Shown here: positions 3,128 to 29,010 of the stretch, one piece after another
Layout: the number at the start of each line of letters is the position of its first letter
How positions within the stretch are numbered: position 1 is the stretch's first letter
Assembly (NCBI GenBank): GCA_963662465.1
Contig: OY759599.1
Span: 5,952,001 to 6,016,000 of the forward strand
Length of the DNA: 64,000 bases
Origin: Desulfatiglandales bacterium
GTDB lineage: Bacteria; Desulfobacterota; DSM-4660; Desulfatiglandales; Desulfatiglandaceae
Reading direction: 5' to 3'
Notes under the pieces: model-generated
The model's input: only the letters and a program-made list of their open reading frames with translations
Database searches by the model: none
What the model was told of the DNA's origin: nothing
Translations under genes and position numbers: made by a program

Positions 3128-3970
3128 ATGGACGAGATAGAAAGGTTCATTGAGCTGCCGGCAGACGACAAAAACCGACATATTCGGGCCCTGGGAATAG
3201 ATTTGGGTGCCACGAATTCAACTGTTTCAGAGGTGGTTTGGGGTCCTGGAAAACCCCCTTTGTGCAATGTCCTCGAATTAAAACAACCCACCCAGGCCGG
3301 TGAATATACAAGCCCCTTGGTTCCTTCGGTTCTTGTTGAACTCCCAGATAAAGAAGTCTGGATTGGTGAAGGCGCCAAACGTTTGCGTGCGTTCTTACAG
3401 AAAGCAAACCTGTTCCATGAGAAAAACCTGTTTTATGAAACCAAGAGCGACATGGGGCTTCGGAAAACATATTTTCGCGCGCCTGAACGCTTTAACCATG
3501 CCTCTAAAATTGCGGGCGCTATCCTTACCTTTCTAAAAGAGAGCGCAGAGAGCGCTTCCAACAGCAGCTACAACCATATTTCGGTCACGGTTCCCGCATC
3601 GTTCCAGTTAAATCAGCGACAAGATACTTTACTGGCCTGCCAATACGCAGGGCTGGAGTTACAAGATGATGATTTGTTGGATGAGCCGACAGCCGCTCTT
3701 ATCGATTACATCATCATCAAAGGTAATGAAAGCGTGGTTCGTTCAGGCGAAACGAGCCAATGTGTTGTCTTCGATTTTGGTGGAGGCACATGTGATGTAT
3801 CGGTCGTGGAAATTACAGGTGATCTGAACAGCTGAAAAATCATGATGAGTGAGCTGTCCGTATCCCGTTACCATCGACTCGGTGGCGGGGACATCGATGT
3901 TGCCATTGTCCATGAAATTCTGATTCCGAGCCTTTTAAAAGAGAATAATTTCTCGCCTCTCACTCCATAA
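3128..3970 (+). pseudogene. Hsp70/DnaK-like protein, interrupted and truncated
   Basis: GIDLGATNS, VTVPASF, DEPTAA and VFDFGGGTCDVS motifs. After an in-frame TGA at 3833 it continues to LGGGDID, then stops at 3970. Confidence 0.85.
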
Positions 3971-4157
3971 TAGGATTTATCCATGAGGCGGAAAAGAACG
4001 GACATTTGACGCTGCAACACACTTACGATTTCAATCAAAAAAGCGCGGAAATGCCCCAGAGTCAGGATTCGGAAGATGAGTTTTCTTTATTGTAAGTAAA
4101 TTAAAACTGTTCTACTTAACACCAGGAGAATCAATTCACGCAAACATTTCATTGATA

Positions 4158-4637
4158 ATGGAAATTCAAGAACAGATACTGACAAACATTCAGGATGCTA
4201 AGCATCTCTACCAGAAGCTGATTCTTCTGGTCGGCAAATCCGGTTCCGGTAAGACGGGAATTCTCAAAAAATTTTCCAGCGAGTTTGCTGTCCCCATGAT
4301 CAATGTGAATCTGGAAATGTCTTCCCGTCTTCTGGATATACCCTTGGGGAAGCGAGCATCTAACTTATCCAGGCTGTTTTCAAGCCTCTTTAGCGATACC
4401 GGGAGCGATATGGTGCTCCTGGACAACATGGAGATTCTTTTTGATAAATCTCTTCAGCAAAACCCCCTGTCTCTCCTTCAGAACAATGCAAAGAACCGGG
4501 TCGTAATCGCTGCATGGAATGGAGCCATAGAGAACAGGCGCTTAACCTACGCAAGGCCGGAACACCATGAATTTCAGGCCTACCCGATCGAAGAAGTGGG
4601 TATCACAATCGAACTCAACCCATCGCCGGATGAATAA
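4158..4637 (+). CDS. brxF: BREX-3 P-loop protein BrxF
   Basis: About 160 aa with LILLVGKSGSGKT, LLDNMEILFD, LTYARPEHHEF; first gene of the BREX-3 order. Confidence 0.85.
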   Translation: MEIQEQILTNIQDAKHLYQKLILLVGKSGSGKTGILKKFSSEFAVPMINVNLEMSSRLLDIPLGKRASNLSRLFSSLFSDTGSDMVLLDNMEILFDKSLQQNPLSLLQNNAKNRVVIAAWNGAIENRRLTYARPEHHEFQAYPIEEVGITIELNPSPDE

Positions 4638-4667
4638 TCCGATCCTGGCTGAAACGGAGGCAACATC

Positions 4668-5223
4668 ATGTATTACCATGAACTCATTCAGTTCGACCCC
4701 ATTGAAACTACCGTCCAGCTCATTGAATCGGATGATAAGGCAAAGGCCCAAGAATTGGTTTCAACGTTTGTTATCTCCGATGACATGGCCCTGAACATTA
4801 CGAAGATCGCTTTTGAACAGCTTCAATTTGATCACCCCATGGATAACAAGGGGCTTTTAATCGTTGGAAACTATGGTACTGGAAAATCCCATCTGATGTC
4901 CGTCATCTCCAGCATTGCGGAATATGAGGACATGGTCGAAAACGTCAAGAATGAATTGGTCGGAAAAGAGGCCCGGAAAATTGCAGGCAAATTCAAGGTG
5001 ATTCGGATTGAAATCGGGTCCAGCACCATGGATTTCAGGGAGATGATCTGTTCTGAGTTAAGCGATGGTCTTGCGAAATGGGGTATTGAATACCGCTTTC
5101 CGAATAGAGATAAAATCACTAATCACAAACAGGCTTTTGAAGAAATGATGGCGGTGTTTCAATCCGTTTATCCTGAAAAAGGTTTACTGCTGGTGCTTGA
5201 CGAATTGCTTGACTATCTCCGTC
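4668..5223 (+). pseudogene. brxC: BREX-3 ATPase BrxC (DUF6079-type), N-terminal fragment
   Basis: ELIQFDPIET, Walker A GNYGTGKSH, Walker B LLVLDELLDYLR; cut by IS21 element B. Confidence 0.9.
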
Positions 5224-5385
5224 CCCGGGCGGCCACCCAAAATCCCCCACCTGTGGCCACTTGAAAATCCCCCACCTAAAGAGGTTCAAAATGTAGATTT
5301 TTGATCTTCGGCTCAATTCACAAAATGGTGACAGGACGTTATACCATCTCCCAATGCAATTTAATTGAATTGGGAGGAAGAAAGG

Positions 5386-8070
5386 ATGAACGTTTTGAAG
5401 CCGGACAAGAAATCTACCATCATTACCCTACTTAAAAATGGCGTTGGTCAGCGTGAAGTACATCGTAAGACCAATATTGACAGGAAAACGATCCGAAAAT
5501 ACGCAAAAGAAAGTGGCTTTTTACCCGAAGATTCCGACTTAAATTCAAGATCCCCCACCCTGGCCACCGGGGCTGATTGCATCATCAGTGAAAATCCCCC
5601 ACCCCGGCCACCGGTAAACAGCACATTCAAGGGAGAAAAACGGGCGATTCCACTCCATGCCAGATCAGCATGTGAGCCTCACCGAGAATGGATTGAAAAG
5701 CAGGTGAAGCTCGGGAGGAATGCCGTAGCGATTTACCAAGATTTGGTCGAGCGATTTGCCTTTACCCACAAATACAACAGCGTAAAGCGGTTTGTAAGGG
5801 GACTGAGAAAAGAGGACCCCAAGCAATTCGATCGATTGGAGTTTTTACCAGGGGAAGAGGCTCAGGTAGACTATGGCACGGGAGCCAAAACGCTTCATTC
5901 GACAGGGAAATACCGTAAAACTCGTCTCTTTATAATGACGTTGAAATACTCCAGGCGCTCATTCCGGAAAGTAGTTTGGCAATCAAGCAAAGAAACATGG
6001 GCAAAACTTCATGAGGAGTCATTTCGATATTTCGGAGGTTGCCCCCAATATGTGGTTCTGGACAATTTGAAAGAGGGCGTCATCAAACCGGATCTTTACG
6101 AACCTGAATTGAACACCGTCTATGCGGCCATGCTGGAGCATTACGGGGTTGTTGCAGATCCGGCAAGAGTTAGAGACCCAAACCGGAAAGGGACTGTTGA
6201 AAATGCCGTACAGCATACCCAAGACACAGCTTTAAAAGGTCGCACATTTGAATCGATTGAACGACAGAATGAATGGCTTATGCACTGGGAGGAACAATGG
6301 GCTGCTCAGCGGATACACGGGAGAACCAAGCGACAGGTTGAAGAAATGTTTCAAGAAGAAAAACCGTACCTTAAACAACTTCCCTTAACTGCATTCAGCT
6401 ATTTCAGCCAAGAAATCCGTACGGTCTGGGATGACGGCGCCATTCAGGTGGGGAAATCCTATTATTCAGCCTTGCCGGCGCCCCTTTATACAAAGGTTAT
6501 TGTCAGGATTTATGACAGAGAGATTGAGATTATCAATCCTGTAACAATGGAGATTTTCCGCAGGCACGCCAAGAACAGCAGGCCGGGATCTGTCAATATA
6601 CCGCCGGAAGATAGGATTTTTAATCCTTCACGTCAAACAACGTATCTCTTTGCCAAAGCAGAGAGCATTGGTCCCGCAACTTTAAAATTATGCAAGGTCT
6701 TGTTTGAGGAAGAAGGCAGAACCGGTCAAAGACGAATACAGGGGATTGTCAACCTGGTCCGACATTATGAGGCCCGTTACGTGGAACAGGCCTGCATCAA
6801 AGCCAATAATGTGGGGCTGCGCAATTACAAATCCATCCGCAACCTTGTCAAAACGTTAGCCGAAAAAAACCAGGAAGAAAAGGATTCTGAGGGGCTGATT
6901 CAGGAACATAAATTAATACGCCCTCCGGAAGATTATGCTGCATTCTGGGAGCAGCACGCCGCACAGACACCGGTTTCGGAGGAAGGAGCAAACCGTTTTG
7001 TCATGCCCAAAGAGCAACTACCCGCAGTTTGGAAAAATGCAAGCTGGGAGAGAGTGATTGATGTTTTTGGCCTGGAAGTTGATGGAAACCGCCGCTGTAA
7101 GGCCAACGAGACATGGATCAAATCGCCTTTTACAGGCGAAAAAACTGCTTCGCTGCATTTGAACCTGACGGAGAATATCTTCAAGGATTTCAGCAGTGGC
7201 CTGGGGGCGAAAGTCGGTGTACTCAATTTCTGCCAGGATCTTTTAGCGCTGCGAGGCCAGGCAATGAATTGCTATGAAGTTGCCTCCTGGATGGTGGAAA
7301 ATGGAATTTCAAATTTGGATATACGTTCACGCGAGGTTAAAAACCATGTTCCTGAACTCAAAAAACCGAAAGAAAACAAACCGATTCAAGTGGATTTAAG
7401 GCGTTTTGTACAGCCGCAACATCCAGAATTAAAACATCGACAGGTTTCAGAGGCGACATGTCGCTATCTGGGATGTGGTTTTCTCCCGGAAAGGCCGAAT
7501 GGAAACAAACAGTCACCTCTCAATGGCCGGTTGGTGTTTCAAGTGCGGGGAATGTCCGGCGCTATACTGACACATGTCGGTCGTGCATTGACACTGCAGC
7601 AAGAAAAAACGAATGGGAAATACTGGAGCTTTCCGTTCTTCAAAAAACTGGAAATATACAACCAGGACAAACTGTTATCAGATGCTTCAGCAAAGGATCA
7701 AGTTCAGCGGCTTGGCTTGGTGCTGGTAGAAGGTTTTTTTGATGTGGCAGTTTTGGTCGAATCGGGTTGTTTGAACGTCGGAGCACTGATGGGGTCGCAC
7801 ATGACCGAACAACAGGCAGCCCGAATAAAGTTAATCAGCTCACACATTGAGATTCCCAAAATTACCGTTTTTTTGGACAGGGATGAAGCTGGGAGGATTG
7901 GCGCACAAAAAGCAGTTACTGTGCTGCGGAAAAATGGGTTTTCAGCCGAGGCCTTTGACTGGAACCAGACCCTTGGGTCGTCATTTGTGAAAATCCCAAT
8001 GGCCGTTATGGATCCAGGCGATATGTCGTTAAGGCAGCTAAAGTGGTTGAGAAAAAAGGGAAACATTTGA
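5386..8070 (+). CDS. istA: IS21 transposase IstA fused to DnaG-like ZBD and TOPRIM domains
   Basis: N-terminal HTH, AQVDY, VLDNLK and KGTVE; C-terminal SPFTGEKTAS...FKDFSSG, LVEGFFDV, GALMGS, FLDRDEAG and DPGD; one uninterrupted ORF. Confidence 0.85.
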   Translation: MNVLKPDKKSTIITLLKNGVGQREVHRKTNIDRKTIRKYAKESGFLPEDSDLNSRSPTLATGADCIISENPPPRPPVNSTFKGEKRAIPLHARSACEPHREWIEKQVKLGRNAVAIYQDLVERFAFTHKYNSVKRFVRGLRKEDPKQFDRLEFLPGEEAQVDYGTGAKTLHSTGKYRKTRLFIMTLKYSRRSFRKVVWQSSKETWAKLHEESFRYFGGCPQYVVLDNLKEGVIKPDLYEPELNTVYAAMLEHYGVVADPARVRDPNRKGTVENAVQHTQDTALKGRTFESIERQNEWLMHWEEQWAAQRIHGRTKRQVEEMFQEEKPYLKQLPLTAFSYFSQEIRTVWDDGAIQVGKSYYSALPAPLYTKVIVRIYDREIEIINPVTMEIFRRHAKNSRPGSVNIPPEDRIFNPSRQTTYLFAKAESIGPATLKLCKVLFEEEGRTGQRRIQGIVNLVRHYEARYVEQACIKANNVGLRNYKSIRNLVKTLAEKNQEEKDSEGLIQEHKLIRPPEDYAAFWEQHAAQTPVSEEGANRFVMPKEQLPAVWKNASWERVIDVFGLEVDGNRRCKANETWIKSPFTGEKTASLHLNLTENIFKDFSSGLGAKVGVLNFCQDLLALRGQAMNCYEVASWMVENGISNLDIRSREVKNHVPELKKPKENKPIQVDLRRFVQPQHPELKHRQVSEATCRYLGCGFLPERPNGNKQSPLNGRLVFQVRGMSGAILTHVGRALTLQQEKTNGKYWSFPFFKKLEIYNQDKLLSDASAKDQVQRLGLVLVEGFFDVAVLVESGCLNVGALMGSHMTEQQAARIKLISSHIEIPKITVFLDRDEAGRIGAQKAVTVLRKNGFSAEAFDWNQTLGSSFVKIPMAVMDPGDMSLRQLKWLRKKGNI

Positions 8071-8127
8071 TTTCCATCGCCACGTTCTCGGTGGCGCGGA
8101 AATTTGTTTAACCTAAACGGCCATCCG

Positions 8128-8603
8128 AAGGAATCGGGCTTATGTATAAGCGAATATGGTCGGACTTTTTGAATCTCGTTACACGATAATCATAGGGCTT
8201 GATTGTTTTGGAGGTGAAAATGGGAGGCGGAAAACGTATGGGAGCCAGTCGAAAAAAGAAATCAGATCATTTGAGACGTGAACTGCTGACAATTCGATTG
8301 CCGAAGTGGATGATTTCACAGCTCAAAAACAAATGTGAAATTGGCTATTTGATCGAGGATCAATTAAGGAATCGGGCTTATGTATAGGCGAATATGGTCG
8401 GACTTTTTGAATCTCGTTACACGATAATCATAGGGCTTGATTGTTTTGGAGGTGAAAATGCGAGGCGGAAAACGTACGGGAGCCGGTCGAAAAAAGAAAT
8501 CAGATCATTTGAGACGTGAACTGCTGACAATTCGATTGCCGAAGTGGATGATTTCACAGCTCAAAAACAAATGTGAAATTGGCTATTTGATCGAGGATCA
8601 ATT
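8128..8603 (+). repeat. Tandem duplication of a 238-bp unit
   Basis: 8128-8365 versus 8366-8603; I count four substitutions. Confidence 0.95.
8220..8387 (+). pseudogene. Truncated duplicate of the small DNA-binding protein
   Basis: Lacks the PDDYDID tail; R>G, T>M and G>S changes in the basic N-terminal motif. Confidence 0.65.
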
Positions 8604-8655
8604 GAGGAAGATAGATTTTTTGGATATCCCGGATGACTATGACATTGATAACTGA
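8458..8655 (+). CDS. Small putative DNA-binding protein
   Basis: GGAGG ribosome-binding site; 50 of 65 residues identical to 2057..2254 by manual alignment. Confidence 0.7.
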   Translation: MRGGKRTGAGRKKKSDHLRRELLTIRLPKWMISQLKNKCEIGYLIEDQLRKIDFLDIPDDYDIDN

Positions 8656-8678
8656 AATCGAGAAAGGAGAAACTGAAT

Positions 8679-9452
8679 ATGCCGATGTCAATGCAGGAAA
8701 TAGAGAAAAGTCTAGGAACGCTACGTTTAAGCGGTATGCGAGCAACATTAGAAACCCGAGTGATACAGGCAAATCAAGGAGAATCTTCTTTCCTGGAAGT
8801 CTTTTCATGCCTGCTTCAGGATGAGTTAGATTACAGGCGGTCGTGCCTGATAGAACGTAGATTTAATGCTTCCGGTCTTCGTGAGAGAAAAACATTGACT
8901 GAGTTTGATTGGGGCTTTAATCCAAGACTTCCAAAAAAGGAAATTTTTGAACTGGTGACCATCAAATTTATACACAACGGTGAAGACGCACTCCTGATCG
9001 GTTCTCCCGGGACTGGGAAAAGCCATATCGTTAAAACAATTGCTCATGCTGCAACACAGGCATGCCATCAGGTTGTTTATCGTGAGGCCCATACTTTCTT
9101 TGAAGATGTCTTCGAAGCAGCCCAAACAGGGAAGACAAAAAAAATAACAAAGCTTTTTTCAGAAGCAGACTTGCTAATAATAGATGATCTTTTCCTGAGA
9201 AAAAGGGTCCCTGAACATGCGGCAGATGATCTTCTTGATATCATACTGAATCGTTATTCCAAAAGAAAAAGTACACTCATAACATCAAACCGTCCGGTGG
9301 AGGACTGGGGTAAACTGCTCAGAGACAATGCCGCATCCTCTGCGATCCTTGACAGGTTGCTCCACCGAGGCCATTTGCTCAAATTTGAAGGAAAAAGCTA
9401 CAGGCTAAAGGAGGCTGCAGAAAAACTTGCCATAGGGAAGAAAAAAGAATAA
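8679..9452 (+). CDS. istB: IS21 helper ATPase IstB
   Basis: GSPGTGKSH, LLIIDDL, ITSNRP, ILDRLLH, GKSYR. Confidence 0.95.
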   Translation: MPMSMQEIEKSLGTLRLSGMRATLETRVIQANQGESSFLEVFSCLLQDELDYRRSCLIERRFNASGLRERKTLTEFDWGFNPRLPKKEIFELVTIKFIHNGEDALLIGSPGTGKSHIVKTIAHAATQACHQVVYREAHTFFEDVFEAAQTGKTKKITKLFSEADLLIIDDLFLRKRVPEHAADDLLDIILNRYSKRKSTLITSNRPVEDWGKLLRDNAASSAILDRLLHRGHLLKFEGKSYRLKEAAEKLAIGKKKE

Positions 9453-9580
9453 AGTGTAACCGTTCTGTCGCTGAAGATCTTTCCAATGCCACGGTCAAGA
9501 TCCTACATGGCCACCTTCACAGGTGGGGGATTTTGGGGTGGCCACAAGTGGGGGATTTTGAAGTGGCCATCCGGGCCGTC

Positions 9581-12500
9581 AAAGGAAAATGCAGGAATTG
9601 GTCCGGGACCTTGGGTTTTTGAGGGAAATCGGGGAGGTCTGCAAGAACCTTCGCTTTCGTTTCATGGCAGGCGTCCAGGAAGCCATCTTTGATACAGATT
9701 CGTTCGAATTTGTTTCTGGCAGCATCAAAAGGGTTAAAGATAGATTTGAACAGGTATTGATTGCCAAGAAGGACGTGAAGTTTGTGGTCTCTCAAAGACT
9801 CCTTCAAAAGACGCCCGAGCAAAAAGCCCGGATTGCAGCCTATTTGGCTCCTTTTTCGAAATTTTATGAGCAGATGAATGAAAGGATGGATGATTATGTG
9901 GAGCTTTTCCCCATTCATCCTGAATATATTGATACATTTGAAAAAATAAGAGCGGTCGAAAAGCGAGAAGTGTTGAGGACCTTTTCCCGTGCCATGAAAG
10001 AGGTCTTAAACGATCCGGTGCCGACCGATTATCCAGGCGTCATTGCTTACGATGGTTATTGGAAACAATTGAAGGAAAACGCTGCCTTTCGATCCATACC
10101 GGATATTCGAACGGTCATGGAATGCAGCGATGTTCTGGAATCAAAAGTGAATCAGTCGTTCAGCAGACCGCCCTATAAAAAGATGGCATTAAGGATTATT
10201 CAGGGCCTTTCCATAAACAGGCTGGCTACAGGGAATATTTATCAGCCGATCGGGCTGACGGCCAGATCGCTCAGGGATGAACTATGCCTCTATCAACCCG
10301 GCATAGAAGAAATGGGGGGTGAACCGAATGAGGATCTTCAAACCCTTGTGGAAACTGTTCTGCGCGAGATTATCAAGACTGTAAACGGACAATTCATTTC
10401 CATGGCCCAGGATTCCGGACAATACTATTTGGATCTCAAAAAGGACGTAGACTATGACGCCTTGATCGAAAAGCGCGCAGAACTTCTCGAAAATGATAAG
10501 CTTGACATGGCTTATTTCGATGCTCTCTCCAGGATACTTGAACGATCCGACATCTATCATCCGGGAACCCACCTGGCATGGGAATATGAGCTCCAATGGT
10601 TGAATCGGAAGTCGGCCCGGATCGGCTATATGTTTTTCGGTACGCCCAATGAACGATCTACCGCCCAGCCGCCCAGGGATTTTTATCTCTATTTCACTCA
10701 GATTTTTGAAGCCCCGTCGTTTAAAGATGAACTTCGATCGGATGAGGCGTTCATCAAATTGACCCATCTGGATGATGAGATCAAGAAACTCATCCGATAC
10801 TATGCTGCCGCTCAAGCACTGGGATCTACTTCTTCCGGCCAGTCGAAAACCATCTATCTCGAAAAAGCAAGCGGGTTTCTCAAGGAAATTGTTCAATGGC
10901 TCAGGAAGAATCTGTTGACGGCTTTAGAACTGAAATACCAGGGAAAATCAAAAGCCATGCTTGAATGGCTAAAAGGGCGTATGAGCCCCTCAGAAATGGA
11001 GCAGAGTACGGTCCGGGATCTGTTAAATACAGCTGCTTCCATTTGCCTTGCAGAATATTTCAAAGAACTGGCGCCCGAATATCCTTCATTTTCTATCAAG
11101 ATCACCGGCGACAACCGTCAGCAGGCAGCAGTGGATGCGCTCCGTGGTATTGGGGGTTCCACCAGGACCAAGCAGGGCACAGCCGTGTTGGATGCTCTTG
11201 AACTGTTTGATGGGGATAACATAGATCCACGGCATTCCAGGTACGCCTTGTTCATTCTGGATTTGTTGAGTAAAAAGGGGGCGGGCCAGGTTCTGAATCG
11301 TTCGGAGCTAATCCAGGATATAATGGGAGTTGAGTACCTGTTGCCGGAACGATTTCGACTGGAACCGGATTGGGTGGTGGCTATACTGGCAGCCCTGGTC
11401 TACGCGGGAGATCTCGTCCTTAATATTCCGGGAAAAGAATTCAGCGCCATCAATATTGCCGCCCTTTCCGCAACGCCTCTCCAGGATCTAATTGATTTCA
11501 AGCATGTCAAAAAGCCCAAAGGTGTGCCCACTGGACCATTGAAAGCACTATTTGAGCTTCTGGGCCTTGCGCCCGGACTTGCCATTGAAATTTCTCAAGG
11601 GAAAAGCGGGCCGGTGGAGCAGCTCCAGACCACCATCGCGGTTTTCGTGGAAAAACTTGTCATGGCCGTTCAGAAGATTCAAACGGGCATCCCATTCTGG
11701 GGGAAGAATCTTCTGTCGGATGATGAGGTCATCTCTTGCCGGAAAAAGATGGAGGAAACCAAGACGTTCCTTGAATCGATCCAGGCCTTCAATACGCCGG
11801 GCAAGATGACAAATTTCAAGTATTCTGAAATCGAAATCCGGAACCATGGTGGAGGGCTTGCCGTACTCAAAGAGGTCAATGCGTTGCAGGAAATCGTCGG
11901 GGATCTCGGAAGCCTCGCCTCCTATCTGGCTCAGGCTGAAGCATATCTTCCGGATACGGATTCATGGATCAGCAAAATGAAAACAACGCGTGATGCCATC
12001 CTTTCCAGCTTTTACGATCCGGAAAAACGCACCAAACCGGAATTCAGGCAGAAAACCCTTCAGCAATTAAATGAATTACAGCAAAGTTACATGGATACTT
12101 ACACATCCATGCACCAGAAAGCCAGGCTGGGTGTGAATGATGACAATCGGAAAAAGGCACTTTCAAGAGATGACAGACTCGAAAAGCTCAAAAAACTAGC
12201 CACCATCGGCACCATGCATGCCAGCCAGCTGGTGGATTTCCAGAACCGCCTGGCCAATCTTACGCCCTGTTACAGCTTTCTAAAAAAAGATCTGAATACC
12301 ACGCCCTTATGTCCTCATTGCACATTTAAACCCTCGCAAGAAAGTATTGTAGTTCCAGTCGACAATCGGATTTCAAAACTGGAAGATGATCTTGACAGGC
12401 TCTACGATGAATGGACCAACACCCTTCTAAACAACCTTGAGGATCCGATTACCCAGGAAAGAATTGACCTGCTAACACCTGAGATGAAAAATCATATTGA

Positions 12501-12738
12501 GGCGTTTCTGAAAACCAGAGTCCTGCCGGATCCGCTCAGCGATGAATTCATCCAGGCAATTCGTGAAGCACTGTCGGATCTCAAGAAAATTACCATAAAG
12601 GTTCCGGATCTGAAGGATGCTCTACTTGCGGGGGGCTCACCATTTAATCCTAATGAAATGAAAACCAGGCTGGATACCTATCTCAGCCGGCTTACCGCAG
12701 GGAAGGACCCCAGCAAGGTCAGAATTGTACTGGAGTAA
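9581..12738 (+). pseudogene. brxC: BrxC, C-terminal fragment
   Basis: In frame with 4668..5223 once the IS is removed; DLGFLREIGE, LFPIHP, PNERSTAQPPRDFY. Confidence 0.9.
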
Positions 12739-28714: not shown

Positions 28715-28812
28715 GATGTTCGCCAAAGGGCCGGTTTTGAGGTCTGAATATCACCGGTCTGTTTGAATCTCGTTACACGAATATCAGAAATTACCTTGTC
28801 TTGGAGCTTGAA

Positions 28813-29010
28813 ATGAGAGGTGGAAAACGGGTAGGCGCCGGCCGAAGAAAGAAACCGGAACATTTGAGACGTGAACTGCTCACCATTCGTCTCCCCAAAT
28901 GGATGATTCTACAGCTGAAAAAAAACGGGGAAATTGGATATTTGATTGAGGATCAATTGGCGAAGGGAGGCCTCCTGAATTTACCGGACGACTATGACAT
29001 AGACAAATAG
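28813..29010 (+). CDS. Small putative DNA-binding protein
   Basis: Same protein as 2057..2254. Confidence 0.7.
   Translation: MRGGKRVGAGRRKKPEHLRRELLTIRLPKWMILQLKKNGEIGYLIEDQLAKGGLLNLPDDYDIDK

Follow-up and report, generated by a model that had tools for sequence, protein, structure and literature searches.

A complete IS21-family element with an extended istA gene

The window analysed here, 64,000 nucleotides of contig OY759599.1 from a Desulfatiglandales bacterium, contains at 5224-9575 on the + strand a 4352-bp insertion sequence in which the transposase gene istA runs on into a region that, by predicted fold and by residues, is a DnaG-type primase module. A spacer with small open reading frames (ORFs) separates istA from istB (Table 1). 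A first-pass annotation of this DNA had claimed a complete IS21 element with an istA ORF about 350 aa too long, and both points were borne out: terminal repeats, a CCGTC target duplication and an intact istB were found, and the 901-aa ORF extends past the IS21 transposase part by about 365 residues.

Table 1. Coordinates of the element, its genes and domains, and the interrupted host gene (positions in the window)
Feature	Position	Strand	Evidence or detail
DUF6079 gene, 5' part	4668..5223	+	Pfam DUF6079 positions 1-189, 1.3e-79
Left copy of target duplication CCGTC	5219..5223	.	same 5 bases at 9576-9580
Left end: terminal CCCGGGCGGCCAC and two direct ~25-bp repeats (GGCCAC..AAAATCCCCCACC)	5224..5277	+	repeat analysis, copy comparison
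istA-primase fusion ORF, 901 aa from TTG 5365; probable start ATG 5386	5365..8070	+	ORF list, homologue alignment
IS21 transposase core, residues 21-340, helix-turn-helix (HTH) region and DDE domain	5425..6384	+	D169 (5869), D233 (6061), E279 (6199)
Two more copies of the end-repeat motif, in the 5' part of istA	5545..5614	+	repeat analysis
Flexible linker from transposase to primase module, residues ~505-545	6877..6999	+	predicted local distance difference test score (pLDDT) <50 in full-length model
Zinc-binding-domain-like fold lacking zinc ligands, residues 546-650 (SPF...H...DFSS)	7000..7314	+	aligns to zinc-binding domains of 2au3, 1d0q
DnaG-type RNA-polymerase domain, residues 676-901	7390..8067	+	Toprim at 7717-7959
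Tandem duplication, 2 x 238 bp, 4 differences	8128..8603	+	repeat analysis
Small ORF copy 1, 62 aa, altered C-terminus	8199..8387	+	ORF list
Small ORF copy 2, 72 aa	8437..8655	+	ORF list
istB, AAA+ helper ATPase, 257 aa, intact	8679..9452	+	IstB_IS21 (PF01695) 7.2e-51; NF038214 6.5e-63
Right end: two ~25-bp repeats and terminal GTGGCCATCCGGG	9518..9575	+	repeat analysis, copy comparison
Right copy of target duplication CCGTC	9576..9580	.	same 5 bases at 5219-5223
DUF6079 gene, 3' part	9581..12738	+	Pfam DUF6079 positions 190-1238; frame restored without element

By sequence, the element is a member of the IS21 family. The N-terminal 535 residues of the istA product match the NF033546 'IS21 family transposase' profile at 1e-77 (261.6 bits against a cutoff of 160), with a Pfam rve match at 3.9e-8, and they match the IS5376 IstA structures 8q4d/8b4h at 4e-24, whose acidic residues align with D169, D233 and E279. 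Across 49 sequences D233 and E279 never vary, and conservation of D169 is 90% or higher. The istB product scored 212.5 bits against NF038214, for which the cutoff is 200. As in other IS21 elements, a DDE transposase IstA with an HTH region and a beta-barrel is accompanied by an AAA+ helper, IstB, and repeated sites lie in both ends; the closest named relative is IS1631 from Bradyrhizobium (56% identity over residues 8-530). In homologues the protein starts with MNVLKPDKK. Here that sequence is encoded from ATG 5386, preceded by a GGAGG-like site, which points to a probable length of 894 aa.

Unlike classical IS21, this IstA ends in a primase module, and istB lies 608 bp downstream of istA rather than abutting it. 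The element is also larger, at 4.35 kb (3.75-3.9 kb in relatives that lack the small-ORF insert), than classical IS21 members, which measure about 2-2.7 kb. Plain, unfused IstA relatives stop near residue 533, close to a linker (residues ~505-545) that has the highest ratio of nonsynonymous to synonymous substitution rates (dN/dS) within the fusion ORF. A full-length AlphaFold model was considered for interdomain contacts and proved unusable, with a mean pLDDT of 62 and a predicted template modelling score (pTM) of 0.28.

A search of the 8.16-Mb one-contig genome recovered three full-length, 100%-identical copies of 5224-9575 in differing flanks, together with one left-end and two right-end fragments. 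All three copies begin with CCCGGGCGGCCAC and finish with GTGGCCATCCGGG, and because these ends are shared in unlike flanks the limits of the element are exactly 5224 and 9575. Each end carries two ~25-bp repeats, and the ends are kept in relatives; the two further motif copies inside istA are putative IstA binding sites. The window copy is bordered by the 5-bp duplication CCGTC, a length that agrees with the IS5376 strand-transfer complex, the structurally solved model, while the flanking bases are TCCAC at copy 2 and, with a one-base offset, TCAAGA at copy 1 (L001). Counting four copies on contigs of related metagenome-assembled genomes (MAGs; L015-L017 and L021), seven copies show target duplications of 4-7 bp, and in L020 the duplication is offset by one base. 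Removal of the element and one CCGTC from the interrupted DUF6079 gene gives an open frame of 1237 aa, with the 1238-position Pfam profile split at 189/190. The alternative CCGGG was ruled out as the target duplication: it fails to restore the DUF6079 frame and belongs to the element's ends, as seen in the three copies. These identical copies and their target duplications substantiate the earlier claim that the element moved as a unit with the fusion, and it looks like a recently active IS21-family element of an IS1631-like subgroup.

Sequencing runs X1, X3, X4 and X9 were available as Logan contigs, which drop rare forms. One contig of X3, a run with the same organism label from another sample, spans the left junction with 0 differences. 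Run X4, from another organism, holds a ~97%-identical element whose contigs break into unrelated flanks at 5224 and 9575/9576. In the metatranscriptome library X9, contigs cover parts of the transposase, the primase and istB at 90-99% identity, with possible DNA carry-over.

A DnaG-type primase module fused to the transposase

The extension had been read in the first-pass annotation as a zinc-binding-domain segment without ligands followed by a TOPRIM domain with its catalytic residues, and the motifs quoted there (SPF...KDFSSG, VEGFFD and LDRDEAG) are all present and conserved. The domain and structure searches that it had suggested gave concordant results. At residues 785-865 Pfam reported Toprim_2 at 6.5e-8, above the Pfam cutoff, and Toprim_4 at 1.4e-7, and in a phmmer search of PDB sequences the top matches were all DnaG polymerase domains (4e2k 2.5e-7, 2au3 3e-7). 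The same method paired KSPFTGEKTASLHLNLTENIFKDFSSGLGAK with the CHC2 finger of 2au3, the four zinc-ligand positions reading S, G, D and S; the ligands of a primase-type CHC2 zinc finger are thus replaced while the fold is kept, and Pfam Zn_ribbon_DnaG matched at only 0.064. TIGR01391 dnaG matched at 5.5e-21, yet with 74.9 bits against a cutoff of 283.6.

A family profile and a model of the module were built from alignment A2, comprising the query and 49 stand-alone relatives. The profile matched Aquifex DnaG 2au3 at 8e-42, spanning the zinc-binding domain and the polymerase domain, as well as 4e2k at 4.6e-28 and the isolated zinc-binding domain 1d0q at 9e-16. The AlphaFold model of the module (pLDDT 92, pTM 0.70) retrieved 2au3 as its top Foldseek hit at 9e-16, with twelve further DnaG polymerase-domain rows among the matches listed, and further matches to T4 gp61, T7 gp4, Twinkle and 1d0q (1.9e-4). 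No helicase (DnaB)-binding domain was found: the protein ends with the polymerase domain at 901, and no such Pfam family was reported at E<=10. Overall, profile, predicted structure and residues identify the extension as a DnaG-type primase module.

Toprim domains also occur in nucleases such as OLD and RNase M5, and a Toprim nuclease might cut the non-transferred second strand, as TnsA does in Tn7, and so turn a replicative pathway into cut-and-paste. Some homologues carry the JGI source label 'transposase/5S rRNA maturation endonuclease (RNase M5)', and the module has weak matches to RNase M5 and to small Toprim proteins (A2 profile E-values 0.055 and 0.1-0.2, respectively). However, OLD and RNase M5 have Toprim without the DnaG N-terminal subdomain and zinc-binding domain, whereas here the entire DnaG polymerase domain is conserved, beyond Toprim alone, alongside the zinc-binding-domain fold. 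E-values for DnaG are 8e-42 with the profile and 9e-16 with Foldseek; RNase M5 reaches only 0.055 and 2.5e-2, respectively. We regard a nuclease role as distinctly improbable.

Conservation was assessed on the window module and 28 modules from genome and metagenome loci, 45-98% identical to that of the window. The conserved residues of the polymerase domain are R722, R728, R740, K752, Y753, E789, D793, D838, D840, D883 and D886. All but K752 are the same in 29/29 fused modules, so that the catalytic E and DxD (E789, D838, D840) noted in the first-pass annotation are retained throughout; at position 752, lysine is found in 26 modules and arginine in 3. E789, D793, D838, D840, D883 and D886 are also invariant, or conserved to at least 90%, across alignment A1. 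In the zinc-binding-domain part, S587, P588, F589, H598 and D608 are the same in 28/29 modules (one gapped) and F609, S610 and S611 in 29/29; the residues substituted for the zinc ligands are likewise fixed across the fused modules. Pairwise Nei-Gojobori estimates, which the first-pass annotation had suggested for the primase part, gave dN/dS values mostly of 0.1-0.35 for the module and 0.07-0.26 for the transposase part. By these estimates purifying selection acts on the module across a wide family.

These data also bear on two other explanations. The module might have given up primer synthesis and serve instead to bind DNA, to target or to recruit; it might, for instance, keep hold of single-stranded DNA at forks or at the transposition intermediate, or draw in the host replisome. 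The zinc ligands are gone with their substitutes fixed, the helicase-binding domain is absent, and the module evolves faster than the transposase part of the same loci (45-77% against 62-86% identity), all of which would suit a non-catalytic domain. Yet none of the metal-binding acidic residues differs in any of the 29 modules, even at 45% identity; the basic and aromatic positions that match the nucleotide-binding motifs of DnaG are kept too, save for the K752 exchange, and dN/dS is far under 1. Since residue invariance across 29 modules is hard to explain without catalysis, we consider a non-catalytic module unlikely. The internal stop in one relative (L015) might suggest that the fusion is a dead pseudogene or an artefact of assembly or frameshift. 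Three identical open copies in a one-contig genome, an intact reading frame in 28/29 modules from independent loci, coverage of at least 99% of the fused length by 115/120 best database matches and purifying selection on the module all argue otherwise, and we count this explanation as refuted.

Compared with known primases, the module resembles DnaG (2au3; S. aureus 4e2k; E. coli 1dd9) in having a zinc-binding-domain fold followed by an RNA-polymerase domain with Toprim, and in keeping the EGxxD, DxD and DPxD motifs together with basic and aromatic residues of the nucleotide-binding motifs. Unlike DnaG, it has no zinc ligands and no helicase-binding domain, is fused to a transposase and shares only about 20% identity. 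T7 gp4 and Twinkle, which match in fold, offer a parallel: in them, too, a DnaG-type primase is joined covalently to the oligomeric DNA machinery for which it works, but there the partner is a hexameric helicase and not a DDE transposase. The fusion is a new domain partnership for DnaG-type primases, with a transposase in place of a helicase and a zinc-binding domain without zinc.

Distribution of the fusion and a possible role in transposition

The same architecture, which the first-pass annotation had suggested looking for elsewhere, proved widespread and not confined to this assembly. In a search of 5.8 billion clustered proteins, Toprim domains are present in 118 of the 120 best matches to the fusion, and 115 of the 120 span at least 99% of the query length, with identities of 61-93%. 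The fused proteins are named in databases only as 'IS21 family transposase', 'transposase' or 'transposase/RNase M5', so that a family widespread in metagenomes has yet been annotated merely as a transposase. Three fused copies lie in Desulfatiglandales-labelled MAGs on contigs of 0.6-1.9 Mb, and others in MAGs labelled Desulfobacteraceae, Thermodesulfobacteriota, Anaerolineales, Neomarinimicrobiota and Flammeovirgaceae; MAG copies are mostly on ~4-kb contigs, for which binning is unsure. No fused protein (at least 80% coverage) was present among the 5000 best-scoring of 72,556 plasmid records, and a whole-protein scan of IMG/VR viral contigs found no relative. The fused family is common in anaerobic sediment and aquatic metagenomes and in environmental bacteria.

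Searched on its own against 1.84 billion cluster representatives, the module has 2735 relatives at E<=0.001, of which 70 reach E<=1e-30. They include many stand-alone proteins of ~340-390 aa (for example P0130, P0135 and P0159) that align over the whole module at 28-45% identity. Many of these mini-primases have also lost some zinc ligands: the most distant homologues retain a canonical CHC2 finger (CPxH...CxxC), and nearer ones show stepwise ligand loss. In contrast to the module, the mini-primases are separate genes. One of 400 sampled genomes of the phylum (G279) has three stand-alone forms that adjoin neither istA nor istB. These lie in three paralogous islands (L038-L040, on G279:C2), each with a zinc-less mini-primase of 339-340 aa convergent with a 224-233-aa ORF near an XRE-like regulator, and the islands may be small integrated elements.

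A tree of the transposase part (87 rows after 6 short rows were dropped, unrooted, made by a quick method) placed the 29 fused rows in two clades of 21 and 8 rows. L062, which falls inside the 8-row clade, was scored as plain only because its contig ends at the junction.

The first-pass annotation held the architecture to be undescribed, and we likewise found no published description: full-text searches, together with a check of PMC8649781, gave no account of an IstA-primase fusion, with ISfinder, TnCentral and most subscription journals outside that scope. Nor does the word 'primase' occur in the three IS21 structure papers checked. In PMC11208146 and bioRxiv 10.1101/2023.06.07.543989, copy-out/paste-in transposition of IS21 with an uncut non-transferred strand is proposed, IstA works as a tetramer, and the extreme IstA C-terminus is described as flexible, invisible in structures and of undefined role. 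These two papers, taken together with PMC10122671 and PMC12486865, also state that IS21 forms circles and that the IstA beta-barrel touches IstB. The primase module is placed on exactly this flexible C-terminal tail, after a low-confidence linker under relaxed constraint.

From sequence and position we infer, as the first-pass annotation did, that the primase may serve copy-out or replicative transposition or circle replication. Our preferred proposal, to which we give roughly an even chance, is that the transposase tetramer carries a working primase, which primes the DNA synthesis accompanying IS21 copy-out/paste-in transposition. The module would be an active primase, and an IstA tetramer on paired ends would bring four primase modules to the transposition intermediate, the tetramer taking over from the DnaB hexamer the task of gathering primase. 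Cooperation between subunits, the zinc-binding domain of one with the polymerase domain of another, would then be possible, and the module would lay RNA primers for complementary-strand synthesis at the intermediate, where a double-stranded circle must be made. Self-priming of this synthesis would make the element less dependent on the host primosome; the fusion of primase to transposase suggests an element that starts its own DNA copying when it moves.

Several observations weigh against this proposal. All four zinc ligands are lost, and the zinc-binding domain of DnaG takes part in template recognition and initiation; the helicase-binding domain is missing as well. In the near-identical pair L019/L021 (dS 0.04) the module has a dN/dS of 0.83, and L015, one of three copies in a related Desulfatiglandales MAG, carries an in-frame stop in the fusion ORF (~4948), between the zinc-binding-domain part and the polymerase domain, while L016 and L017 are open. 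The fused form, at 946 aa, was present in just 1/400 other genomes sampled from the phylum. Finally, 15 rows of plain IstA form the sister clade of the fused clade of 21 rows (support of 92 in the Shimodaira-Hasegawa-like approximate likelihood-ratio test, SH-aLRT), a pattern that reflects either one gain followed by loss or two gains. Because this plain clade lacks the module, the module can be lost or is unneeded for IS21 transposition as such.

In a bolder version of the priming proposal, the IstA tetramer and the DnaC-like IstB would need no host primosome to start synthesis, be it on the intermediate or on the excised circle, and the circle might be copied more than once before it reinserts. 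We hold this to be improbable; if true, an element with such a replication-start kit would be the first demonstrated case of a DDE transposon priming its own replication. Still less probable, and in our view very unlikely, is that the primase and IstB, a paralogue of the helicase loader DnaC, let the excised circle replicate as a small replicon and so raise its copy number before reinsertion. IstB is indeed a DnaC/DnaA-like AAA+ protein, and in run X1 the word depth of the element contigs is ~225 against 48-51 for the flanks, a ~4.5-fold excess set beside three full copies and one 562-bp fragment in the assembly. However, contig word depth is not copy number, so no conclusion is drawn from it, and no contig joins 9575 to 5224 as a circle junction in X1, X3, X4 or X9, Logan contigs being prone to drop rare forms. 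The element, moreover, encodes neither helicase nor polymerase, and IstB is known as a remodeller of target DNA, not as a helicase loader (PMC11208146).

A partial precedent for primase action alongside transposases is IEE, the insertion sequence excision enhancer, a PrimPol-helicase that works with transposases of circle-forming copy-out/paste-in elements; unlike the module, IEE belongs to the archaeo-eukaryotic primase superfamily, is encoded outside the insertion sequence by a gene of its own, and favours excision instead of working for the element (bioRxiv 10.1101/2023.06.07.543989). Returning to the tethered primase that we favour, its wider interest would lie in two respects. A conserved primase on an IS21 transposase points to priming as a limiting step, and the fusion offers a one-protein system in which this step can be mutated and assayed. 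The source of DNA synthesis for copy-out/paste-in insertion sequences is poorly understood and usually credited to the host. Self-synthesizing transposons such as casposons and Polintons encode part of their own DNA synthesis machinery, in their case a protein-primed family B polymerase with a different integrase; here there is a primase only, fused to the transposase. For IS21 itself, structural work leaves the role of the IstA C-terminus undefined (PMC11208146), and it is there that the module sits.

Spacer, neighbouring genes and other IS21-like elements

The 608-bp gap between istA and istB went unnoticed in the first-pass annotation. Its 238-bp unit is single in L015-L017 and in run X4 (joint 8127>8366) and absent from the relatives at ~78% identity, in which istB follows directly after istA-primase and the elements measure 3.75-3.9 kb; the small-ORF insert is therefore limited to the close kin of the window element, and the tandem duplication of the small ORF is found only in the window element among the elements compared. 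The small ORF has no Pfam match and no meaningful NCBIfam match. Its nearest named Atlas clusters are ribbon-helix-helix families (scores 0.86-0.89), a lead only, and its product is probably a ribbon-helix-helix protein. The ORF is common to three different IS21-like elements of this genome at 76-88% nucleotide identity.

One of these other elements is a 5.0-kb IS21-like element present in two copies, the first at L014 474-5501 (G000:C1:8094473-8099500) and the second at 6813482-6818096 and 6822448-6822866, interrupted by copy 2 of the primase element. This 5.0-kb element carries genes for a ParB-like protein (298 aa), IstA (494 aa) and IstB (276 aa), along with the same small ORF and a separate 164-aa ORF with a primase-type CHC2 zinc finger (Pfam 9.9e-8). 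No pairwise similarity was detected between this ORF and the zinc-binding-domain part of the window element (E 9.5). Because the L014 element has a CHC2 ORF of its own, primase-derived parts have joined IS21 elements more than once.

A further IS21-like element of 4.73 kb (L013, G000:C1:~7641620-7646350) occurs in about 26 copies, two of which touch the window at ~1990-2250 and ~28746-29006. Its content includes a Cys-rich ORF of 147 aa, an ORF of 139 aa, a ParB-like protein of 294 aa (parB_part 2e-11), IstA (460 aa), IstB (239 aa) and a small-ORF homologue of 69 aa, an accessory set unusually rich for an IS21 element. A Csy3 (type I-F Cas7) gene at L009 168-1217 (G000:C1:7640555-7641604; Pfam 1.8e-145) was considered as cargo of this 26-copy element and rejected, as it lies ~15 bp outside the repeated unit.

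The DUF6079 gene inactivated by the primase element sits behind a small AAA+ ORF (4152-4637), and an Hsp70-like ORF of 235 aa, apparently truncated, lies further upstream at 3128-3835. The region (3128-5223 and 9581-12738) is possibly a locus of the defence type that insertion sequences have knocked out.

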